In this document: positions 2,027-46,127 of the stretch, in pieces
Position numbering within the stretch: position 1 is the first letter of the stretch
Layout: each line of letters begins with the position of its first letter
Source: a virus
Length of the DNA stretch: 46,127 nucleotides
IMG/VR virus record: IMGVR_UViG_3300048592_000656
Reading direction: 5' to 3' (one strand)
Position numbers and translations under genes: made by a program
Notes under the pieces: model-generated
The model's database searches: none
The model's input: only the letters and a program-made list of their open reading frames with translations
Told to the model about the DNA's origin: nothing

Positions 2027-2292
2027 GGTACACCCTAGAGGTCATCGTCCGAGAGGGTCCCATCGTAGGATTCAGGGACCCTTTCGGACAACCCCTCTGG
2101 GCGTACCACAAGATGTACGAAGTCTCAGTGTCAAATCAGTTCGCCTCATCCCACAACTTCTTTGAAGCTGTGGAGGAGGTCAATGAGTCGATTGCCAAAA
2201 TGACTCGACTCATGAACGATCTTGGGATAGTCGTACACTACAAAGTCCGAAGCTGTCATCACGTGTTTTTCCAGGAGTTCATCGCAGAATGA
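2014..2292 (+). CDS. Hypothetical protein (92 aa, GTG start)
   Basis: ORF track. Overlaps the neighbours by 13 nt and 4 nt, typical operon packing. No motif recognised. Confidence 0.45.
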   Translation: MEPLRYTLEVIVREGPIVGFRDPFGQPLWAYHKMYEVSVSNQFASSHNFFEAVEEVNESIAKMTRLMNDLGIVVHYKVRSCHHVFFQEFIAE

Positions 2293-4241
2293 GTTTGGAA
2301 CCCGATGTCGAGTTCTTGGAGTCTATCTTCCAAGAGCAGCCTGGAAAATACATCGCACTCTCGAGGAAGAAACAAGGCAGGTGGAAAGATCTTTTCTTCC
2401 CGAACCTAGAGGAAGCTGTCAACTGGATCAAGCGTCAATCAAATGACACAGACGTCTACTTTTGTCCGACCAAGCTCACTAGACGACGCCGGAGAAAGGA
2501 GTACGTCGCCCCGTCTAAGTTCCTGTGGGCTGATCTAGACGAAGCCGATCCGCGTGACTTGAAGCAAGCGATCAAGCCTACACATGCCTGGGAATCCAGC
2601 CCAGGGCGATTTCAGGCTCTATGGGAACTCGATAAGGCATATTCCCCACAGGAAATCGAGGGTCGCAACAAGGGGATTGCCGAAACTGTAGGCGCAGACA
2701 TTAGTGGTTGGGACTTGACACAGGTCCTTCGCGTCCCCGGAACATACAACAACAAATACCCCTCCCAGCCTCACATCGCCAAGATGTGGATCGATCACTC
2801 TGCTATTCGACCCCTCGTGAACTACCCAGATGCGTCGATAGCACCAATTCCAGACGACGAACAGGACACTTCGCTGGTCGCTAATCGCGCGTTCGTATCG
2901 CGTCTTTTGCGACCCTGGCGACATGCGATTCCGAAGAAGGTAGTCAGGTTGCTGCTGTCTGACAAGGCTACCACAGGTAAGCGATCAGACATGCTTTGGT
3001 ATATCGCTCACGAGTTGATTAAAGCTCGTGTGCCCGAGGATACAGCATTCCAGGCGATCAGGAACTCGGTATGGAACAAGTATCGAGGACGCCGGGATGA
3101 AATCCAAAGGCTTCAACATGAAATTGAAGAGGCTAGGAAAAGAGAGCGGCCTCAAGACGAAGCGATGGATCGCGAAAGACCGCTCTTTTCCATTGTAGAC
3201 CATCTTCAATTGATGGCTTCAGTTCACAGCAGGCCAAACTGGCTCATCGAGCAGTTTTGGTCTTACAACAGCCACGGGATCATCGCAGGCGAACCGAAGA
3301 CGTTCAAGTCTACGCTATGCCTCGATATGGCTATCTCTGTGGCATCGGGGACACCGCTCTTTGGCACATACAAGGTCACTGAGCCTGGGCCTGTTCTAGT
3401 CATCCAGAACGAGAACTCGGATTGGATCATGCAGGACCGCTCGAGGAAAATCTGTGCCACAAGAGGACTCGTTGGGGAAATGCATAGGAGAATCGATGAC
3501 GAGATCATCGTCCATGCACCTCCCAAGCTTCCCATTTACTACGTGAACCAACAAGGCTTTTCCTTCACCGATCCGATGCATACCGAATTCATCGAGGCTT
3601 GGTGTCAGGCGATCAAACCTAGGATGATCGTGTTCGATCCCTTGTATCTCATGTTCGACGGTGAGCTCAATTCCTCGAAAGACTTGAATCCCGTCCTTAG
3701 CTACCTCTTGTATCTCAAACAGGAATACAAGACAGCTATTGTCCTCATTCATCACTGGAACAAAGGTGGTCTCAGTAGTCGAGGTGGCCAACGAATGCTT
3801 GGATCTACAACCCTTCATGGTTGGACCGAATCGGCTTGGTACCTCAGCATCCGAGGCGTTGAGATCGAGAAGAAGGGCGAAGAGGAAGAAGATGAGCCTA
3901 CTGGAGTTCGACCCGCACTAGCCAAGCTAGTCATGGAACGCGAATTCCGTGGTTCTGGTATCTTCCCGAAGGTAGAGATGACTGTGGCAATGGGCGAATA
4001 TGGCAATGATCTTTATGCCGTCAACTTCGATTCCTATAAGCCACAGGCGCAACCGAAAGCATCTCGAGACGACCTCGAGGGCGATATCCTGAATCAGCTC
4101 CAGCTGAATGGAAAAGCTTCTCTTAAGAAGCTATCCGAACTTGTAGGAACTAGCCGTCGACTTGTAAGAGAGGTTACAGTGTCGATGGAGAAGAAGGGGA
4201 TATTGAAGAAGGTGGGCCAGACATACTCGGTGAAGGGGTGA
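2289..4241 (+). CDS. Bifunctional AEP primase-polymerase / RecA-like (RepA/AAA_25-type) helicase with a C-terminal winged helix
   Basis: N-terminal AEP motifs: WADLDEAD (DxD), SSPGRFQALW (sGxG.h-like), DLTQVLRVPGTYNNKY. Central P-loop IIAGEPKTFKSTLCLDMA, Walker B-like MIVFDPLYLMFDG and LIHHWNK. C-terminal LKKLSELVGTSRRLVREVTVSMEKKG. Confidence 0.85.
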   Translation: MSLEPDVEFLESIFQEQPGKYIALSRKKQGRWKDLFFPNLEEAVNWIKRQSNDTDVYFCPTKLTRRRRRKEYVAPSKFLWADLDEADPRDLKQAIKPTHAWESSPGRFQALWELDKAYSPQEIEGRNKGIAETVGADISGWDLTQVLRVPGTYNNKYPSQPHIAKMWIDHSAIRPLVNYPDASIAPIPDDEQDTSLVANRAFVSRLLRPWRHAIPKKVVRLLLSDKATTGKRSDMLWYIAHELIKARVPEDTAFQAIRNSVWNKYRGRRDEIQRLQHEIEEARKRERPQDEAMDRERPLFSIVDHLQLMASVHSRPNWLIEQFWSYNSHGIIAGEPKTFKSTLCLDMAISVASGTPLFGTYKVTEPGPVLVIQNENSDWIMQDRSRKICATRGLVGEMHRRIDDEIIVHAPPKLPIYYVNQQGFSFTDPMHTEFIEAWCQAIKPRMIVFDPLYLMFDGELNSSKDLNPVLSYLLYLKQEYKTAIVLIHHWNKGGLSSRGGQRMLGSTTLHGWTESAWYLSIRGVEIEKKGEEEEDEPTGVRPALAKLVMEREFRGSGIFPKVEMTVAMGEYGNDLYAVNFDSYKPQAQPKASRDDLEGDILNQLQLNGKASLKKLSELVGTSRRLVREVTVSMEKKGILKKVGQTYSVKG

Positions 4242-4978: not shown

Positions 4979-5497
4979 GTGATTATCGTTGAGGGAATGG
5001 ACAACTCGGGCAAGACCACACTCGTGAACTATCTCGCGGAGACTTTCAACCTACCCGTCATACACTCGCCGGGTCCAAAGGCCGATCTCAATTACTTCAT
5101 GGTCGAGGCCATGATGACTGAGCTGAAGAACGAGCAAGTCATCTATGACCGATTCCCGGCATTCAGTGAAAGGGTTTACGGCCCGATCCTCAGAGGCCGA
5201 GATCACATCCAAGAGCGATACTTGGTACTGCTCGCCGCTCTCAAACCATACATCATCCACTGTGACCCAGGTCTGCACACAGTCCTGAGCACGATCAAAG
5301 ATCGTGAACAAATGGAGGGTGTCGAGGATCAGGCAGAACGTCTTTATCATCGGTATGAGAAGATCATGTTTCCCGAGGGAAACAAGCTTTTCTCTTTCCA
5401 TGTGACTCGATACAACTGGCATCATGAGATGTCTTACTCCTACATCAAACACAACGTAGCCCATTACCTCCAAACCCGAAAGGACAACCCGTGGTAA
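4979..5497 (+). CDS. dNMP kinase / thymidylate-kinase-like P-loop protein (172 aa, GTG start)
   Basis: N-terminal MIIVEGMDNSGKTTLVNYL matches the IxxEGxDGsGKTT P-loop signature of dTMP/dNMP kinases. First gene of the cassette. Confidence 0.65.
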   Translation: MIIVEGMDNSGKTTLVNYLAETFNLPVIHSPGPKADLNYFMVEAMMTELKNEQVIYDRFPAFSERVYGPILRGRDHIQERYLVLLAALKPYIIHCDPGLHTVLSTIKDREQMEGVEDQAERLYHRYEKIMFPEGNKLFSFHVTRYNWHHEMSYSYIKHNVAHYLQTRKDNPW

Positions 5498-5919
5498 ACA
5501 TCAAAGACATCGACCAAATGGAAAAAGAAGAAGATCATGGCCTCAAAGACAAGCTGGAAATCCTCTGGTGGAGACAGGGCCAGCTTCGATCTCGGTATGC
5601 AGAGATCGAGATCAAGAATGGTTTCCACGTGCCTGCTGGCGTGGCAGATCTCGACAATGCCAAGGATCAGCATTTCCTCAAAGACTTCGCCTGGCGAATC
5701 ACGGAGGAACTCGGCGAGGCAATGAACTGCCTCAAGAACAAGCCGTGGAAGCAGACGCACATGGAGACCGACAAGGAACACTTCGTGGAGGAGGTGATCG
5801 ACGGCTTCCATTTCTACATCGAAATGATGCAATGGATCGGCATCACTCCCGACGACCTCGTCGATCTATATCTCAAGAAGTCTCGAGTCAACAAGTTCCG
5901 TCAACGGAGCGGGTACTGA
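5491..5919 (+). CDS. All-alpha NTP pyrophosphohydrolase (dimeric dUTPase / MazG-like family)
   Basis: ITEELGEAMNCLKNKPWK...EHFVEEVIDGFHFYIEMM...YLKKSRVNKFRQRSGY resembles the dimeric dUTPase (dUTPase_2) pattern: ExxE, KxWK, ExxD, and a C-terminal K..N..R..gY. GTG start with a GAAAGGA SD. Confidence 0.6.
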   Translation: MVNIKDIDQMEKEEDHGLKDKLEILWWRQGQLRSRYAEIEIKNGFHVPAGVADLDNAKDQHFLKDFAWRITEELGEAMNCLKNKPWKQTHMETDKEHFVEEVIDGFHFYIEMMQWIGITPDDLVDLYLKKSRVNKFRQRSGY

Positions 5920-6167
5920 TGAAGCTCAGGCAGAAGCGATATATCTACGAAATCATCTTCAAATCGAAGCAAGGAGAAGTCACAAGAGCCGAGTTCGGTC
6001 CATGCCTCAACCCACCGAAGAGACTCAGCGTCAATGAAGACGGAGTCATTCGGATCGGGGTCTTTTCACACTGGTTCAAGGTGATCGACACAGACCGATA
6101 CTACGCGGTCTACAACGAAGAAGAAAGGGCACAAGTTGCTGACGATTCAGTCCAAGACGCTCTATAG
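5919..6167 (+). CDS. Hypothetical protein (82 aa) inside the nucleotide cassette
   Basis: Internal ATG of track ORF 5568..6167 forming an ATGA-type overlap (TGATG at 5917-5921) with the upstream gene. MKLRQKRYIYEIIFKSK...; no motif recognised. Confidence 0.5.
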   Translation: MKLRQKRYIYEIIFKSKQGEVTRAEFGPCLNPPKRLSVNEDGVIRIGVFSHWFKVIDTDRYYAVYNEEERAQVADDSVQDAL

Positions 6168-6957
6168 GTGCTGGAAAGACCTCAACCGAGGCTTCCTGAA
6201 CCCGGAGCTCGACAACACGGGAATGCTCATTCCCAACCGAGACTTCTCGAGGGTCATTCCACACGTTCGTCTAGTGGCCGAAGAGGGGTTCGGCCTTCCG
6301 TCGAACCTCAACAAGCTGCCTCAGTTTTTCTCCAACTATGATCGGCGAATGACCCTTCTGGGAAATCGCTACATCGATCCCGAACTGTGGCAGGAAGGCG
6401 TCGAACGGCTCGTGGCTCGACGAAGTCGAATGGCACGGACCAATCCGCTCAGCTTCGTCATTCCGTTCCACAGGAGGGCAACCAGCGAGCGAAAGGTACC
6501 GGCTGGTGGTGGGTGCCTGCAGACCATCACGTTCATCTGGGTGAACGGCCGATGGGAACTTCACGTCGCACTTCGAGCTTCCGAGATCACCGCAAGACTG
6601 ATCGCCGACATGCTGTTCGTGAAGCGATCCGTCAATGCCATCGTCGAGGAAGTCAACTTCAAGAAGTGGGAGCCCAAGACTCGGATCGTGTGGGACATCG
6701 CTCTGGCTTCCCAGATGAAGTACTTGGTACCCCTCTACGTCCTGTTCGCCGAAGGAGAGGGTCAAGTCATCAACGAGTACACTTCGGGAAAGCCTGAAGG
6801 TATCTGGCAAAACATTATCTGGGAGCACTTCTGGGATACGTTCATCTATCCCGAACGGATCACGTGGGCACAGCGCCGAAAGTGGTCCGAGAAGTTTCTG
6901 GAAATGACCAGCGCACCCTGGGCCAAGCTGGCCAAGGCAGGAAGGGACTTCAAGTAA
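6136..6957 (+). CDS. Divergent thymidylate-synthase-fold (ThyA-like) paralogue 1 (TTG start; alternative ATG 6223)
   Basis: Core GGGCLQTITFIWVNGRWELHVALRASE reproduces the ThyA active-site spacing C-x5-F-x4-G-x8-R (E. coli [23 protein letters not shown]). The N-terminal half is unlike canonical ThyA. Confidence 0.45.
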   Translation: MLTIQSKTLYRCWKDLNRGFLNPELDNTGMLIPNRDFSRVIPHVRLVAEEGFGLPSNLNKLPQFFSNYDRRMTLLGNRYIDPELWQEGVERLVARRSRMARTNPLSFVIPFHRRATSERKVPAGGGCLQTITFIWVNGRWELHVALRASEITARLIADMLFVKRSVNAIVEEVNFKKWEPKTRIVWDIALASQMKYLVPLYVLFAEGEGQVINEYTSGKPEGIWQNIIWEHFWDTFIYPERITWAQRRKWSEKFLEMTSAPWAKLAKAGRDFK

Positions 6958-7655
6958 TGCGAATCTACAAGACTTTCATCGAAGCAGTGAGCGAGATGCG
7001 ACGGGACCTCAAGGAAATGGGTATCGAGGTACATACCCAGACATACCAAGACAAGCACATCGGTCTCGACCCGAAGATGGCAACCCTCGAGCTCCAGAAC
7101 TACATCTTCACAGTCACGTACCCCAGCCTGGCCGACCTCGAGCCGGTTCAGCCCTGGGCTGATCTGGAATTCGAGGAGAGGGTTCGCCCTCCGCACCCTC
7201 GTGGCGTGAACCCGGGTGAAGCCTACAAGGCTCGAATCGACGTCTGGGAGCAATTCCTCGAGCGCGATGGCTGCTTCGGGTACACTTACTCGGATCGAAT
7301 CAACAACAACGATGGAGCCAGCCAAGTCGATCAAATCGTCAGGGCAATTCAAATCGATCCGAGCTCGAGACAGCTCTTCATGTCGATCTGGGAGCCCGAG
7401 GACCTTTTCAACATCGGAGGAGCTCGTCGAGTCCCGTGCACGCTGGGCTATCACTTCCAGGTTCGACGAGGTCGGCTCAACATCACGTACCTGCAACGAT
7501 CCGCTGACATGGCCACCCACCTTCAGAACGATCTCTATCTGGCTGCCCGGATGCAAGCTCACGTCGCTGAACTGACTGGGTATGAGGTAGGTACCTATAC
7601 CCACTGGTTCGGCTCCCTCCATGTCTTCAAGAAGGACGTCGAGGGCGTATTCTAG
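6957..7655 (+). CDS. ThyA-family enzyme, deoxypyrimidine-monophosphate hydroxymethylase/methylase-like (232 aa)
   Basis: Internal ATG of ORF 6864..7655 (TAATG overlap at 6955-6959). DPSSRQLFMSIWEPEDL, RRVPCTLGYHFQVRRGRLNITYLQRSADMATHLQNDLYL and GSLHVF align with the ThyA motifs sRR.i.s.WnP.d, PC...F.V..G.L....QRS.D......N and gd.H.Y. Confidence 0.8.
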   Translation: MRIYKTFIEAVSEMRRDLKEMGIEVHTQTYQDKHIGLDPKMATLELQNYIFTVTYPSLADLEPVQPWADLEFEERVRPPHPRGVNPGEAYKARIDVWEQFLERDGCFGYTYSDRINNNDGASQVDQIVRAIQIDPSSRQLFMSIWEPEDLFNIGGARRVPCTLGYHFQVRRGRLNITYLQRSADMATHLQNDLYLAARMQAHVAELTGYEVGTYTHWFGSLHVFKKDVEGVF

Positions 7656-7656
7656 C

Positions 7657-8136
7657 ATGGACGCAGTAGATCCGACCTTGGCGAGTCTTTTGGCAGTCGA
7701 CACCCAATGGGATCGATTGCAAAGAGATGAAATGTTCCTCGCCATCGCCAAGGTCGTTTCTCTGCGAGGAACCTGCAGAAGGGCTCAAGTGGGTGCGGTG
7801 ATCGTCAAAGAGAACCGAATCATCTCCACAGGCTACAATGGGTCTGCCCCGGGTATGCCCCATTGCTATGAAGATGGTTGTCTCGAGGACGTGAATGGTG
7901 GGTGCACTCGGACGGTACATGCTGAAGCCAACTCGATTCTGTGGGCAGCGAGGTTCGGGGTATCGGTTGAAGACTCGGTGATGTATTCAACTCATTCCCC
8001 TTGTCTCTACTGTGCAAAGATGATCGTGGGGGCTGGCATCGTCAAGGTCACCTATCTGCACCCATACCGAGACCCCGCTGGGCTTGACTACATGCACAAC
8101 TGTGGGCTACGATACTGTCACCTTCAGGTTGGGTGA
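7657..8136 (+). CDS. dCMP deaminase (CMP/dCMP-type zinc deaminase)
   Basis: VHAEANSILWAA (HAE) and HSPCLYCAKMI (PCxxC) zinc-binding motifs. Start taken at ATG 7657, 1 nt after the upstream stop. Confidence 0.85.
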   Translation: MDAVDPTLASLLAVDTQWDRLQRDEMFLAIAKVVSLRGTCRRAQVGAVIVKENRIISTGYNGSAPGMPHCYEDGCLEDVNGGCTRTVHAEANSILWAARFGVSVEDSVMYSTHSPCLYCAKMIVGAGIVKVTYLHPYRDPAGLDYMHNCGLRYCHLQVG

Positions 8137-8162: not shown

Positions 8163-8175
8163 CCTGAGATATAAT
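8163..8175 (+). promoter_or_regulatory. Promoter-like 13-mer CCTGAGATATAAT (-10 TATAAT 8170-8175)
   Basis: Intergenic and identical to the 13-mer at 13436-13448. ATG 8187 is 11 nt after the -10. TTGGGT lies 18 nt upstream, and a T5CGT run is at 8138-8145. Confidence 0.6.
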
Positions 8176-8186
8176 TGGAGAATCGT

Positions 8187-10799
8187 ATGGCAACAGTAAA
8201 CGGCGATCCTCGATGCACGTTATGTCCCCTTCACAAGACTGCACAGATCGTGTGTCTTATGGGTCGGGGGCCTCTCCCTTGCAAGGTGATGATCGTAGGC
8301 GAGGCACCTGGTCGAAGGGAGGATGACGTTGGTAAGCCCTTTCAAGGTGCTGCTGGGCGCGTTTTGGACGAGGAGCTTTCGCTCAACGATGTATCGAGGA
8401 ATGACGTTTACATCACCAACACAGCCCGATGTAGACCACCCAGGAATCGAACTCCCAAGGCCGTAGAGATTCGTGAATGCGCCATCTGGATGGAGAAGGA
8501 GTTCAAGGAAGTTCAACCCAAGTTCGTTCTCTTGATGGGTCGAACTGCTTTGAAGACCGTGCCATTCTGGAAAAAAGCGAGCATCACGAAGATCCGAGGC
8601 CAGATCTACGAGCACGATGGCGTCTATTACATGGCTACGTTCCACCCTGCAGCCTGTCTGCCTGGAAGAGATACTGGCCGTGATAAGAAGCGCCCGGCAT
8701 TCCGAATCGACTTGAGTACCTTCTTCAAGTTGGTACGAGACGGGAAACCCCAGGAAACTGAGGGATTGAACGTCCAGATAGTTCGGAATGCCGACACTTT
8801 CAACGAGATGATCGACGACCTTCGAGAATGTCCCGATCCCTCGTATGACTTGGAAACCATGGGCCTTCGACCTCACGTGCCAAAGAAAGACATAGTCCTG
8901 GCTGGCTTTGGTACAGAAAAAGCTCAATGGGTCGTACCCATCAATTATCCCACAGCCGACGGAGGCAACAAGGCCCCGTTCAAGACTCGTCGGTCTAGGA
9001 AAATGGCTTGGGAATTGATCGGCGAAGCAATCCACGGTAAAAAGCTCATTACCCACAATGGCAAGTTCGACGCTTTGTGGGCATATACGAGATATGGCGT
9101 GATGCCGTATATTGGCTTCGACACGATGCTTGCTCACTATGTTCTAGATGAGAATTCACCGCACGCTCTCAAGTACCTTGGCCCTCTCTACTTTGGTATC
9201 CATGATTGGTCATTGGATATGGAAGGCGAATGGTGGCTCAGGTATACGCTCAAGGAATCGTCGAAGTATCTAGCTCAGGATCTTTTCTACACTCGAAAGT
9301 TGAAAGGCATCTTGTATGCTGAGCTAAGAAAAGACCCCGCGCTACTCCGATTCTACCGAACAATCCTTCTGCCTGCTTTCAGGCTCTATGCTCGAGTCGA
9401 AAAGGAAGGTATGTTTCTCAATATGGCCAACTACGAGGCGGCCAAATCTCACGCAATGAATCTTTGGGGTAGGGCATGCCTCGAGGTCAATAGAATCGAC
9501 CCCTCCATCAATTGGGGATCGCCGAAGCAAGTAGCCAAAAAGCTATATGAGGAGTTTGGCTTTCCCATCATCAAGACGACAAAGAAGGGAGCTCCGTCGT
9601 CAGATGAGGCCACACTTACCATCTTGGCTGAACCCCCCGACAAACCCATCCATATGTCTATCACTCGGCCAAATGAAAATCCAAAGATATTCGGCTCGAG
9701 AAAGACTATCGAATGGTGGTCCGGATACAAACACGAGATTCCACAAGCTCTTTTGAATCATCGGGCAGCGAAGAAAATGAAGGAGTTTGTGGATTCGTGG
9801 GAAGAACACCAGCAAGGTGGGCTAATTCACCCGTCTTACAAATTCCTCACCGTCACGGGTCGACTCTCTTGTGAAGGTCCTAACATTCAGCAAACGCCTC
9901 GAGAAAAAATCTTGAGGCAATGCTTTGATGCCCCCTTTCCGTTCATCTTCGTCGAGGCCGACCATTCACAGGTCGAACTCCGAGGCGTAGCGATGTTCGC
10001 TCCCGAGCCTACGATGAAAGCCATCTTCATCGCAGGCGAAGATATTCACAGGATGACTGCTCGAGACATCATTGGGATTGCTAACCCTACAGCCGAAGAC
10101 CGAAAGAAAGCAAAGGCAGTCAACTTTGGTCTCATCTACAGGATGGGCTGGAAAAAGCTACGAATCTACGCTCGTACCAAGTACGGAGTTGAGCTTTCTC
10201 CCGGGGAAGCGAAGAAGATCGTCAAGAATTACTTCCTGAAGTACAATCGACTCCGGTATTACTACGAGAAGCAAGAACGAGTAGCTCGGATGAATGGCTA
10301 TGTCCGTCATCCGTTGGGTCGCGTTCGCCACCTTCCCAATATCTTTTCTGAAGACGAACAAGAGCAGAACGAGGCAATTCGACTTGCCATCAATTCCCCG
10401 GTTCAGGGGTTCGCTTCAGATTACAATCTAGCGGGCATGGTTGACGTCGACCTTGAATTCAATCCCACTTGGGATGGTCCGCTACGAATCGTAGGAACGG
10501 TTCACGACTCGGGGCTGATGTGGGTCCATGCTCTTCATCTCCGTCGAATCCTCCCGAGGGTGAAGGAGATCATGGAGCATCCGCCCCGAGTCAAGAACAA
10601 AATCGGATTTACTCCTACGGTGCCTTGGAAGGTCGATTTCAAGATCGGCCCTTGGGGCGCTGGCAAGGAAATCGATCCGATGGCATGGGAAAATTGGGAA
10701 GTCTTCGTCAAAGACATGAAGGAGTCTGGTCAATGGGAACGGTACAAGCAGGCGAGGGAAGCGAAGAAGATCGACTCGTCGTTTCCCTCAGTCGGATAA
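8187..10799 (+). CDS. polA: Family-4 uracil-DNA-glycosylase domain fused to a family A DNA polymerase with 3'-5' exonuclease
   Basis: UDG4: CTLCPL, GEAPGRREDDVGKPFQGAAGRVLDE, ARCRPPRNRTP, FHPAA. Exo: YDLETMGL, HNGKFD, YLAQDLFY. Pol: ADHSQVELRG (motif A), KAKAVNFGLIYRMG (motif B), GTVHDSG (motif C). ATG 8187 is preferred over the track TTG at 8175. Confidence 0.9.
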   Translation: MATVNGDPRCTLCPLHKTAQIVCLMGRGPLPCKVMIVGEAPGRREDDVGKPFQGAAGRVLDEELSLNDVSRNDVYITNTARCRPPRNRTPKAVEIRECAIWMEKEFKEVQPKFVLLMGRTALKTVPFWKKASITKIRGQIYEHDGVYYMATFHPAACLPGRDTGRDKKRPAFRIDLSTFFKLVRDGKPQETEGLNVQIVRNADTFNEMIDDLRECPDPSYDLETMGLRPHVPKKDIVLAGFGTEKAQWVVPINYPTADGGNKAPFKTRRSRKMAWELIGEAIHGKKLITHNGKFDALWAYTRYGVMPYIGFDTMLAHYVLDENSPHALKYLGPLYFGIHDWSLDMEGEWWLRYTLKESSKYLAQDLFYTRKLKGILYAELRKDPALLRFYRTILLPAFRLYARVEKEGMFLNMANYEAAKSHAMNLWGRACLEVNRIDPSINWGSPKQVAKKLYEEFGFPIIKTTKKGAPSSDEATLTILAEPPDKPIHMSITRPNENPKIFGSRKTIEWWSGYKHEIPQALLNHRAAKKMKEFVDSWEEHQQGGLIHPSYKFLTVTGRLSCEGPNIQQTPREKILRQCFDAPFPFIFVEADHSQVELRGVAMFAPEPTMKAIFIAGEDIHRMTARDIIGIANPTAEDRKKAKAVNFGLIYRMGWKKLRIYARTKYGVELSPGEAKKIVKNYFLKYNRLRYYYEKQERVARMNGYVRHPLGRVRHLPNIFSEDEQEQNEAIRLAINSPVQGFASDYNLAGMVDVDLEFNPTWDGPLRIVGTVHDSGLMWVHALHLRRILPRVKEIMEHPPRVKNKIGFTPTVPWKVDFKIGPWGAGKEIDPMAWENWEVFVKDMKESGQWERYKQAREAKKIDSSFPSVG

Positions 10800-46000: not shown

Positions 46001-46127
46001 GACTTCCAGTATGTCAATCATCAAGCTCCACCAGGGTCAGGTCCAGGAGATCCCCTTCAAGCAGGGGGACAATCTCCTGGAGCTCACCAGAAACACGTTC
46101 CACAGCAAGACCTTCACCGTGAGTCAC
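46001..46127. repeat. Terminal direct repeat, copy 2 (exact duplicate of 1-127)
   Basis: Same comparison as copy 1. It contains the 5' end of the CDS annotated at 11..400, so the unique genome is 46000 bp. Confidence 0.97.

Follow-up and report, generated by a model that had tools for sequence, protein, structure and literature searches.

Background

Does the thymidylate synthase (TS)-like gene of an uncultured phage make thymidylate, or does it modify cytosine for the phage's DNA and, if so, what is its product? We address this question for the phage of IMG/VR record IMGVR_UViG_3300048592_000656, a stretch of 46,127 nucleotides referred to as a whole as the window. The gene at 6957 to 7655 carries the label 'thymidylate synthase' in every related database record inspected, and because the records say so a role in cytosine modification would stay hidden. 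A megablast search of 20 kb of the stretch against 50,697 phage records returned no match; with no close sequenced relative, an annotation cannot be transferred to this phage.

Replacing Asn177 of TS (E. coli numbering) by aspartate, N177D, turns the enzyme towards dCMP, and among residue-level markers of cytosine-modified phage contigs Asp at 177 ranks first (PMC8670742). The dCMP specificity of N177D enzymes and their link to cytosine-modified viral contigs are also described in 10.1101/2024.12.05.627091 and PMC13326640, and work cited in PMC8670742 is reported there to show that the replacement abolishes the dUMP preference of E. coli and L. casei TS. A typical cytosine-modified contig carries an N177D TS with a dCMP deaminase less than 3 kb away, and also encodes an NTP pyrophosphatase and PolA (10.1101/2024.12.05.627091).

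Here we examine the gene product and its neighbourhood by profile, fold and gene-order comparison. Its residues suggest that a 5-modified dCMP for phage DNA is the most likely product. As the best explanation we tentatively put forward a dCMP-specific enzyme that would make 5-hydroxymethyl-dCMP within a four-gene cassette, cytosine being replaced genome-wide.

Results and discussion

A TS-fold enzyme with aspartate at the Asn177 position

The genes considered here are the following:

4979..5497, + strand: P-loop dNMP/thymidylate-kinase-like kinase (phrog_761 thymidylate kinase, E 3.8e-21)
5491..5919, + strand: all-alpha NTP pyrophosphohydrolase of the dimeric dUTPase/MazG type (PF08761 dUTPase_2, E 1.6e-11)
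6223..6957, + strand: X, an unannotated and putatively TS-fold, divergent paralogue of 244 aa (longest open reading frame from 6136)
6957..7655, + strand: TS-superfamily enzyme of 232 aa (ATG at 6957, TAG at 7653-7655)
7657..8136, + strand: zinc dCMP deaminase of the ComEB / S. mutans type (PF00383, E 1e-22)
8175..10799, + strand: DNA polymerase A with 3'-5' exonuclease and N-terminal family-4 UDG domain (PF00476, PF01612, PF03167)

The product of 6957-7655 matches PF00303 over residues 92-231 (E 1.3e-22; 80.6 bits against a Pfam cut-off of 24.3). A preliminary description of this DNA had remarked that the N-terminal half is unlike ThyA and is without the DRTG block; indeed the first 90 residues fall outside the Pfam match, and the R21 position is Asp38. 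The AlphaFold model (pLDDT 94) nevertheless has the whole TS alpha/beta fold. Its top Foldseek matches are MilA, ThyA and AfhB (E about 1e-16, TMq 0.7-0.79), MilA ranking first with scores indistinguishable from those of ThyA. Ungapped alignment identifies family-invariant equivalents of the catalytic residues: Cys161 in P160-C161 as the nucleophile, Arg181 and Ser182 as the phosphate site, Asp184 as the equivalent of D169, and H222 and F224 at the His207 and Tyr209 positions. Arg138 is a further phosphate-binding residue.

The base-reading segment, residues 180-195, is QRSADMATHLQNDLYL. It contains H188-L-Q-N191-D192 at 7518..7532 (+), with codons CAC at 7518-7520, AAC at 7527-7529 and GAT at 7530-7532. 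Four independent alignments, ungapped between the RS.D and G..H.Y/F anchors, place D192 at Asn177. In phmmer against solved ThyA chains, 'rsadmathlqn|d' pairs with 'rsndmalgnpf|n'; hhalign of the family profile puts D192 at Asn177 of E. coli ThyA (probability 98.2%) and lays HLQND on GFRND of T4 gp42 (96.8%), so that N191-D192 corresponds to N178-D179; and MAFFT again sets D192 opposite Asn177. The earlier reading by eye, which had matched the Asp of QND to Asn177 and to Asp179 of T4, and a preceding Leu to Leu174 (L189 here), is thereby borne out.

That description had also named the outcome that would overturn it, namely Asn191 rather than Asp192 at the Asn177 position. The ungapped alignments and the identical Asn-Asp pair of T4 gp42 rule this out: the T4 pair is in register, and its Asp179 is the proven cytosine reader, recognizing and protonating the base as established by crystallography and mutagenesis (PMC6400193). 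Asp192 is invariant in 120/120 database homologues (47-100% identity) and in 85/85 loci of the family. Its conservation and placement are far beyond chance.

A probable substrate of cytosine rather than uracil

Under the published homology rules, the 6957-7655 enzyme is very probably a dCMP-specific member of the TS superfamily. The proposal made at the outset was a C5 transferase specific for cytosine, and not a TS; Asp192 with the N177D rule, the gene layout and TS scores below cut-off all support it. The residue argument is correct, yet it is already the established diagnostic of the field. The stretch shows exactly the published arrangement of N177D TS, dCMP deaminase, NTP pyrophosphatase and PolA, which is the described hallmark of fully C-modified phages (T4, Xp12, MetaGPA).

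All NCBIfam TS equivalog cut-offs are missed: the best match, TIGR03283, reaches 69.7 bits against 174.6, and NF002495 66.2 against 327. ThyX coexists with the N177D TS homologue in nine of the 85 loci (L003, L006 and seven others). These low scores, together with ThyX in relatives, argue that the product is not the phage's thymidylate synthase. The complete genome holds no other TS, ThyX or DHFR.

An ordinary divergent TS, methylating dUMP from the neighbouring dCMP deaminase, would agree with the uniform annotation of related records, with the canonical dTMP route of dCMP deaminase followed by TS, and with a genome that has no other TS. We nevertheless regard it as highly unlikely, as Asp replaces Asn177 in all 205 sequences examined, the His147, Leu143 and Gly173 positions and the C-terminal arm are altered as well, and the effect of N177D on dUMP preference in work cited in PMC8670742, the scores far under the equivalog cut-offs and the ThyX of relatives all speak against it.

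A conserved cassette, probably for nucleotide modification

The kinase, NTP pyrophosphatase, X and TS homologue form a cassette whose members occur in 74, 80, 77 and 85 of the 85 loci, respectively. It accompanies either PolA or PolIII-alpha replication modules, and the same four genes are found in phages Muddy, PMBT14 and CPD4; Polewnik is a further cultivable carrier. The kinase, with weak P-loop matches to Pfam dNK and Thymidylate_kin, lies just upstream in its 74 loci and may phosphorylate modified dCMP. The pyrophosphohydrolase (phrog_12184 nucleotide pyrophosphohydrolase, E 5e-35) would, like T4 gp56, act as a dCTP (and dUTP) pyrophosphatase, at once clearing dCTP and providing dCMP. Downstream, the deaminase (phrog_174, E 3e-54; PDB 2hvv, E 3e-31) has an alternative start at 7621 that would overlap the TS gene; it is present in 56/85 loci and lies within 3 kb downstream in 40/79, and it may supply either dUMP or, if 5mC-selective, dT nucleotides. 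The polymerase carries GEAPG, HPA and CxxC motifs and presumably incorporates modified dCTP.

By analogy with T4 gp56, gp42 and gp1, we infer a pathway in which the pyrophosphatase would convert dCTP to dCMP, the TS homologue would modify dCMP and the thymidylate-kinase-like kinase would re-phosphorylate the product. The phage PolA could then build a genome with C replaced by the modified base, possibly completely, as a shield against host nucleases, while the adjacent deaminase would feed a dU/dT branch. No glycosyltransferase, carbamoyltransferase or kinase-type hypermodification gene was found in the whole window or in the recurrent gene clusters of the 85 loci. The genes seen in this search of the window and clusters were those of replication, recombination and structure only.

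Hydroxymethyl or methyl at C5

Near the reactive carbon the family has a distinctive set of residues. Arg158 (CGA, 7428-7430) begins the R158-V-P-C161 motif at 7428..7439 (+), three residues before the catalytic Cys161 (TGC, 7437-7439); it is kept in 120/120 homologues and 85/85 loci and corresponds to Leu143 in E. coli, Asp145 in T4 and Asn in Xp12. The Gly173 position is the family-invariant His188, and the Trp83 position is Phe100, the same as in Xp12; in canonical TS, Leu143 and Trp83 make these surroundings hydrophobic. At the Arg127 position, the second arginine of the inter-subunit Arg126'/Arg127' phosphate clamp, 84/85 loci have Gln. In Tyr109-Thr110-Tyr111 the Tyr of Ser/Thr-x-Tyr is retained and its Ser position is Tyr. 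The C-terminal lid is absent, the chain ending 10 residues past the His207 equivalent (His222 here) in 73/85 family members.

In the proposed mechanism Cys161 would attack C6 of dCMP, Asp192 would read and protonate cytosine N3/N4, and C5 would receive a one-carbon unit from methylene-tetrahydrofolate; water would then trap the exocyclic methylene intermediate, giving 5-hydroxymethyl-dCMP. The C-terminal tail of E. coli TS closes the active site so that hydride transfer can proceed; T4 dCH is without this tail (PMC6400193). Ungapped alignment puts Arg158 and His188 at positions listed as within 6 A of C5 (PMC13326640), so both probably lie next to C5, and their polar character leans to hydroxymethyl. 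With no lid and these two invariant residues near C5, water trapping would be expected. GSLH, Thr147 and Asn176 are common to the product and T4 gp42 and are not found in the Xp12 methylase; the hydroxymethylase-like character earlier ascribed to the GSLHVF ending holds on comparison with GSLHVY in T4 gp42, GDTHLY in E. coli and AHAHLY in Xp12. Every Xp12-like 5mC phage encodes DHFR (PMC9206674), the enzyme of dihydrofolate recycling, which is absent from the complete genome here and present in 1/85 family loci; its absence and the missing tail also lean to hydroxymethyl. Tail loss alone is not proof, because short archaeal TS-like proteins (TIGR03283) are tailless too.

Speaking against hydroxymethyl is the T4-type signature, an Asp or Glu at Cys -3 plus Ser/Thr-x-Tyr, in which the acidic residue activates water and whose D145N mutation in T4 abolishes activity (PMC6400193). 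The 6957-7655 product, with Arg158 and Tyr109-Thr110-Tyr111, departs from it. The rule of thumb now in use takes a non-acidic residue at 143 as a sign of methylation and would class the enzyme as a 5-methyl-dCMP synthase; of seven deaminase-linked TS homologues that Yang et al. tested, five produced 5mdCMP (10.1101/2024.12.05.627091).

A dCMP C5-methyltransferase in the style of Xp12 is a real possibility, if one we would not bet on: a 5mC-selective deaminase would turn part of the 5-methyl-dC pool into dT, and with one TS homologue as the source of both 5mC and T, the phage could do without a thymidylate synthase. Besides the published in-silico 5mdCMP call for Asp177 with a non-acidic 143 and the five-of-seven result, such a reading fits a neighbourhood of TS, deaminase, NTP-PPase and PolA/exonuclease as described for 5mC phages, a complete genome with no other ThyA or ThyX, the Phe shared with Xp12 at the Trp83 position, and the lack of any downstream hypermodifying enzyme in the window and recurrent clusters. 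ThyX and the deaminase also seldom occur together (deaminase in 2/9 ThyX loci), a pattern that is statistically weak because it comes from few related lineages. The Xp12 enzyme, however, is full length (289 aa), has a C-terminal arm, Gly173, Tyr176 and Arg-Arg, and neighbours a DHFR gene, whereas the protein here is armless with His173, Asn176 and Arg-Gln, in a genome that has no DHFR. Its deaminase, moreover, is a generic ComEB-type enzyme with 28% identity to that of Xp12.

Published signature rules cannot assign the product of the Arg143/His173 clade, and at superfamily identities of 20-25% a tree would not separate product types. We lean weakly to 5-hydroxymethyl-dCMP; 5-methyl-dCMP follows closely behind. 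The retained Asp169 (Asp184) indicates that the enzyme would not be a 5-hydroxy-dCMP synthase.

X, a candidate partner

The stop codon of X overlaps the start codon of the TS gene (TAATG at 6955-6959). Searches with X of Pfam, PHROG, NCBIfam and PDB profiles gave no match, and Pfam was also empty for 53 family members. The link to TS is visible only by fold comparison and profile-profile methods. In a fold search with the AlphaFold model (pLDDT 85), the best 50 PDB matches are all of the TS superfamily, the best at E 4e-4 and TM about 0.4; hhalign aligns X in register with the TS family (probability 49.5%, E 1.7e-4), and an iterated X profile reaches TS open reading frames at E 6e-5. Across 53 diverse members just five residues never vary: Y50, C98, R118, E121 and D129, spaced as C146/R166/D169/N177. 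These weak scores suggest that X may be a highly divergent second TS-fold protein. It lies directly upstream of TS in at least 70/82 loci.

X could therefore be more than a neighbour. We think it unlikely that the short Arg143/His173/Asp177 TS clade and X make up an unrecognised two-component pyrimidine-modifying unit, whether as a heterodimer sharing one composite active site or through two C5 chemistries in succession. Quite unlikely, too, is a pairing of the TS homologue with X, whether as heterodimer subunits or as enzymes acting one after the other at C5, that yields a cytosine derivative other than 5mC or 5hmC or uses a different cofactor, in the manner of the flavin-dependent 5-hydroxy-dCMP synthases. 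The TS-like spacing of Cys, Arg, Glu and Asp among the sole invariants of X would suit a pairing, as would the adjacency of the two genes, the X stop in 51/72 loci overlapping the TS start or being no more than 50 nt away. The TS clade has also lost the second clamp Arg (Gln in 84/85) and matches none of the published product signatures, and the short flavin enzyme of phage HY126 (9iqc, 9iqu) is among its best fold matches, with the highest identity, 23%. Against this, Asp169 is kept and all tested 5-hydroxy-dCMP synthases are D169N (PMC13326640), 6/82 loci have no X within 8 kb, and the homology scores between X and TS are weak (hhalign probability 10-50%, fold TM about 0.4). If true, a two-component unit would provide a cytosine modification, or a way towards one, not predicted by the current Leu143/Asp169/Asn177 rules; it would occur across hundreds of uncultured phages and also in cultured ones, among them the therapeutic mycobacteriophage Muddy.

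Spread and significance

The family is abundant in viromes, with at least 599 IMG/VR loci, and relatives include Clostridium perfringens phages of the CPD4/CP3 group, Pseudomonas phage PMBT14 and mycobacteriophage Muddy. A search for literature on DNA modification in Muddy, PMBT14, FF47 and the Clostridium phages found none. The kind of enzyme is well known from phages; the Arg143/His173 sub-family, whose product lies outside published signature rules, and the adjacent paralogue X are uncharacterised. The gene predicts fully modified cytosine in the DNA of this phage and of a large group of relatives, which would bear on evasion of restriction and CRISPR, on sequencing and cloning, and on use in phage therapy.

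Comparison with known systems

E. coli and B. subtilis ThyA resemble the 6957-7655 product in fold (TM about 0.75) and in the equivalents of Cys146, Arg166, Ser167, Asp169, Arg126, His207 and Tyr94. They differ at Asn177 (Asp here), His147 (Thr), Leu143 (Arg), Gly173 (His) and Arg127 (Gln), and in possessing the Arg21 block and the last roughly 45 residues, the folate lid, both gone here. MilA-type CMP hydroxymethylases have Asp at both 143 and 177, whereas Arg158 occupies 143 here, and the context here is one of deoxynucleotide and DNA replication genes.

The flavin-dependent 5-hydroxy-dCMP synthases (RB69 gp48, DLP3 gp80 and HY126 AfhB; 9iqc, 9iqu) are likewise short (about 220-235 aa), have Asp at 177 and rank among the best structural matches, but combine L143E with D169N, the latter marking all those tested (PMC13326640), in contrast to Arg158 and Asp184 here. 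Structures 9IQU, 9IQC and 9IR2 were identified via their Foldseek descriptions, a literature search on these codes giving nothing relevant.

Compared by residue rules and layout, the MetaGPA N177D homologues (Yang et al. 2021, 2024) share Asp at 177, a non-His residue at 147 and a nearby deaminase, NTP pyrophosphatase, DNA_pol_A and exonuclease. The dCMP methyltransferase module of Xanthomonas phage Xp12 (also PaMx74 and the mSCD-B5 contig) shares Asp at 177 and a TS homologue followed by a dCMP-deaminase-family gene within a PolA replication module. Its enzyme differs in length (289 aa), C-terminal arm, Asn143, Gly173, Tyr176 and Arg-Arg, and its locus in having DHFR and a HAD hydrolase beside the enzyme and no X.

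T4 gp42 deoxycytidylate hydroxymethylase (PDB 1b5d, 6a9a) is only about 25% identical, and its water-activating Asp145, Gly175, Ser94-x-Tyr96 and Arg-Arg clamp are here Arg, His, Tyr-Thr-Tyr and Arg-Gln; X is absent from T4, and glucosyltransferases are absent from the genome here. Both enzymes have the TS fold, the Cys nucleophile followed by Thr, an Asn-Asp pair with a known (T4) or predicted (here) cytosine-reading Asp, and the GSLH(V)(Y/F) motif, and both lack the C-terminal lid; each phage also encodes a dCTPase-type NTP pyrophosphatase, a dNMP kinase and a dCMP deaminase.

Genome and replication module

The window phage encodes a thymidylate synthase (TS) homologue that is, with high likelihood, a cytosine-specific enzyme and not a thymidylate synthase. 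The window holds the whole phage genome, circularly assembled at about 46.0 kb, as indicated by an exact direct repeat of 127 bp at its two ends (1-127 and 46001-46127). The phage is siphovirus-like, with a GC content of 54.7%, structural genes for terminase, portal, major head, tape measure and others, and no tRNA genes in the window. The TS homologue lies in the following set of genes:

2289-4241, plus strand: primase-helicase
4979-5497, plus strand: thymidylate-kinase-like kinase
5491-5919, plus strand: dimeric-dUTPase/MazG-type NTP pyrophosphatase
5919-6167, plus strand: 82-aa open reading frame (ORF) between the pyrophosphatase and X
6223-6957 (longest ORF from 6136), plus strand: X, overlapping the TS homologue by 1 nt
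6957-7655, plus strand: TS homologue, a 232-aa ORF with ATG start and TAG stop (7653-7655)
7657-8136, plus strand: dCMP deaminase
8175-10799, plus strand: UDG-exonuclease-PolA

Further plus-strand module genes after PolA encode a PD-(D/E)XK exonuclease, a Sak4-like ATPase, SSB, an endonuclease and an SNF2 helicase. The complete genome yielded no second ThyA and no ThyX, DHFR, glycosyl-transferase or carbamoyl-transferase. The DNA polymerase carries an N-terminal family-4 uracil-DNA glycosylase (UDG) domain, with intact GEAPG, HPA and CxxC motifs, fused to 3'-5' exonuclease and polymerase domains; this fusion is kept in two related loci (L006 and L007). A longer ORF overlapping the 82-aa ORF had no family match, and at this position relatives have ORFs of other sizes, for example 189 aa in L006. 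Antisense to the TS homologue, a 301-aa open frame (6846-7751, minus strand) 'conserved' in 25 loci was rejected as a shadow of the conserved TS coding sequence.

The base-reading position of the TS homologue

Pfam Thymidylat_synt matches residues 92-231 of the TS homologue (E 1.3e-22) and PHROG 160 also matches (E 1.3e-36), while the protein scores well under all NCBIfam thymidylate synthase equivalog cut-offs. The 90 N-terminal residues are missed by the Pfam model, yet adopt the TS fold in a confident AlphaFold model built from 55 homologues (pLDDT 94). At E about 1e-16 and TMq 0.7-0.79, this model superposes over its full length on the TS-superfamily structures of MilA, B. subtilis ThyA and the HY126 dCMP hydroxylase.

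Residues 180-195 read QRSADMATHLQNDLYL. Four alignments place Asp192 opposite Asn177 of E. coli ThyA, whose numbering is used for aligned positions: phmmer against solved ThyA chains, MAFFT, and two hhalign comparisons of the family profile, one with E. coli ThyA (98.2% probability) and one with T4 gp42 (96.8%). The alignment is gap-free between the Arg166/Ser167/Asp169 and Gly..His207..Tyr209 anchors. Asp occupies position 177 in all 120 database homologues and in 85/85 loci from viral contigs and isolated phages, which bears out the placement proposed in the preliminary description. The adjacent Asn191 can be dismissed as the Asn177 equivalent, since the T4 dCMP hydroxymethylase has the same pair, Asn178-Asp179, in register with Asn191-Asp192, and its Asp179 is the cytosine determinant established by structure and mutation (PMC6400193).

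A conserved cassette

At least 599 loci in IMG/VR encode relatives of the TS homologue. In the family set of 85 loci (L001-L003, L006-L087 and the window), Arg126 followed by Gln127, Arg143, Cys146, Ser/Thr147, Arg166, Asp169, His173, Asp177, Ser205 and His207 are invariant or nearly so; Asn is found at 176 in 81, and 73 proteins end exactly 10 residues past the His207 equivalent. Kinase (74/85), pyrophosphatase (80/85), X (77/85) and TS (85/85) occur in identical order, accompanied by either PolA or PolIII-alpha modules. The dCMP deaminase is present in 56 loci, ThyX in nine, two of which also have the deaminase, and DHFR in one (L053:2874-3398). Directly 3' of TS, 11 loci have an ATP-dependent DNA ligase (for example L022:8681-9658), reportedly a marker of modified contigs in MetaGPA.

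The same cassette and signature occur in Clostridium phage CPD4 (gp72-75, L001), Pseudomonas phage PMBT14 (gp50-47, L089) and the therapeutically used Mycobacterium phage Muddy (gp49-46, L088), each of which has the enzyme labelled plain 'thymidylate synthase'. We therefore predict modified cytosine in their DNA; in the searchable literature we found no report of base modification in these three phages.

X, a divergent neighbour

X (244 aa, JGI gene call P0121) is an orphan without annotation, and sequence searches with it gave no match in Pfam, PHROGs, NCBIfam or the PDB. Very probably, X is nevertheless another TS-fold protein, strongly diverged and carrying the cytosine-type Asp. Among 53 representatives with identity down to 14%, only Tyr50, Cys98, Arg118, Glu121 and Asp129 are invariant, and the Cys-Arg-Glu-Asp spacing of 20, 3 and 8 is exactly that of Cys146-Arg166-Asp169-Asn177. 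With hhalign these residues pair with their counterparts in the TS family (probability 49.5%, E 1.7e-4) and likewise with those in T4 gp42; the X profile iterated on locus ORFs reached TS ORFs at E 6e-5; and the best 50 PDB matches of its AlphaFold model (pLDDT 85) are all TS-superfamily entries, with modest scores (E 4e-4, TM about 0.4). Among viral proteins the model matches PMBT14 gp48, itself uncharacterised, best.

X occurs in about 90% of related loci, with counterparts in Muddy (gp47), PMBT14 (gp48) and CPD4 (CPD4_74), and forms 56 clusters in a library of 1.84 billion representatives. It ends less than 50 nt from the TS start or overlaps it in 51/72 loci; in the window, the stop of X and the ATG of TS have one base in common (TAATG, 6955-6959). 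In TS enzymes, which are obligate dimers, each active site receives Arg126'/Arg127' from the other subunit. Because the window TS clade has lost Arg127, a putative heterodimer of X and TS is an attractive hypothesis. An extra ORF matching the X profile, besides X and TS, is found in four loci (L029:6458-7195, L053:8689-9396, L057:9006-9704 and L061:3783-4529), so TS-fold paralogues seem to be multiplied within the module.

Product of the enzyme

By homology, dCMP is the predicted substrate, and on that basis the assignment is solid. As product we tentatively favor 5-hydroxymethyl-dCMP, which would arise by hydration of the exocyclic methylene; our commitment is weak, and there is evidence against each of the T4-type hydroxymethylase, the Xp12-type methylase and the 5-hydroxy-dCMP synthase. 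T4-type hydroxymethylases have a water-activating Asp/Glu at Cys-3 and a Ser-x-Tyr motif, whereas the TS homologue has Arg and Tyr-Thr-Tyr; the T4 D145N mutant is inactive (PMC6400193), and a change of Leu143 to Asp/Glu is the published hydroxymethylase mark (2026 paper, PMC13326640). The same paper gives Asp169 to Asn as the mark of flavin-dependent 5-hydroxy-dCMP synthases, and the retained Asp169 rules against that activity.

A somewhat less probable product is 5-methyl-dCMP, made as in Xp12, with the deaminase bypassing thymidylate synthase. Five of seven deaminase-linked TS homologues tested make 5-methyl-dCMP, and the deaminases of that study are 5mC-selective, with a proposed route from 5-methyl-dCTP to dTTP as in Xp12 (10.1101/2024.12.05.627091). 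Against this product, the TS homologue lacks the C-terminal arm, which closes off the active site during hydride transfer, and its GSLH, Thr147 and Asn176 are common to T4, not Xp12. By alignment, Arg and His would also fill two of the twelve positions that lie no more than 6 Å from C5, and no DHFR accompanies the enzyme, whereas all Xp12-like phages encode one (PMC9206674).

Comparison with known cytosine modifiers

The N177D change (N229D in L. casei) converts TS to a dCMP methylase (cited in PMC8670742). In MetaGPA, positions 177 (Asp versus Asn) and 147 (non-His versus His) are the top two residue associations with cytosine-modified phage contigs (PMC8670742). In modified contigs, 70% of dCMP deaminase genes have a TS homologue within 3 kb, other top neighbours being NTP pyrophosphohydrolase, DNA_pol_A and its exonuclease (10.1101/2024.12.05.627091). 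The preliminary description was thus right to read a cytosine-specific C5 transferase (hydroxymethylase or methylase) rather than a thymidylate synthase, and its reasoning is already a standard diagnostic of the field. The TS homologue is a mis-annotated member of a known enzyme kind, identified by an established rule, and residual novelty lies in the product chemistry of the clade and in the cryptic paralogue X. T4 combines gp56 (dCTPase), gp42, gp1 (kinase) and cd (deaminase); the window follows the same logic on a different phage chassis.
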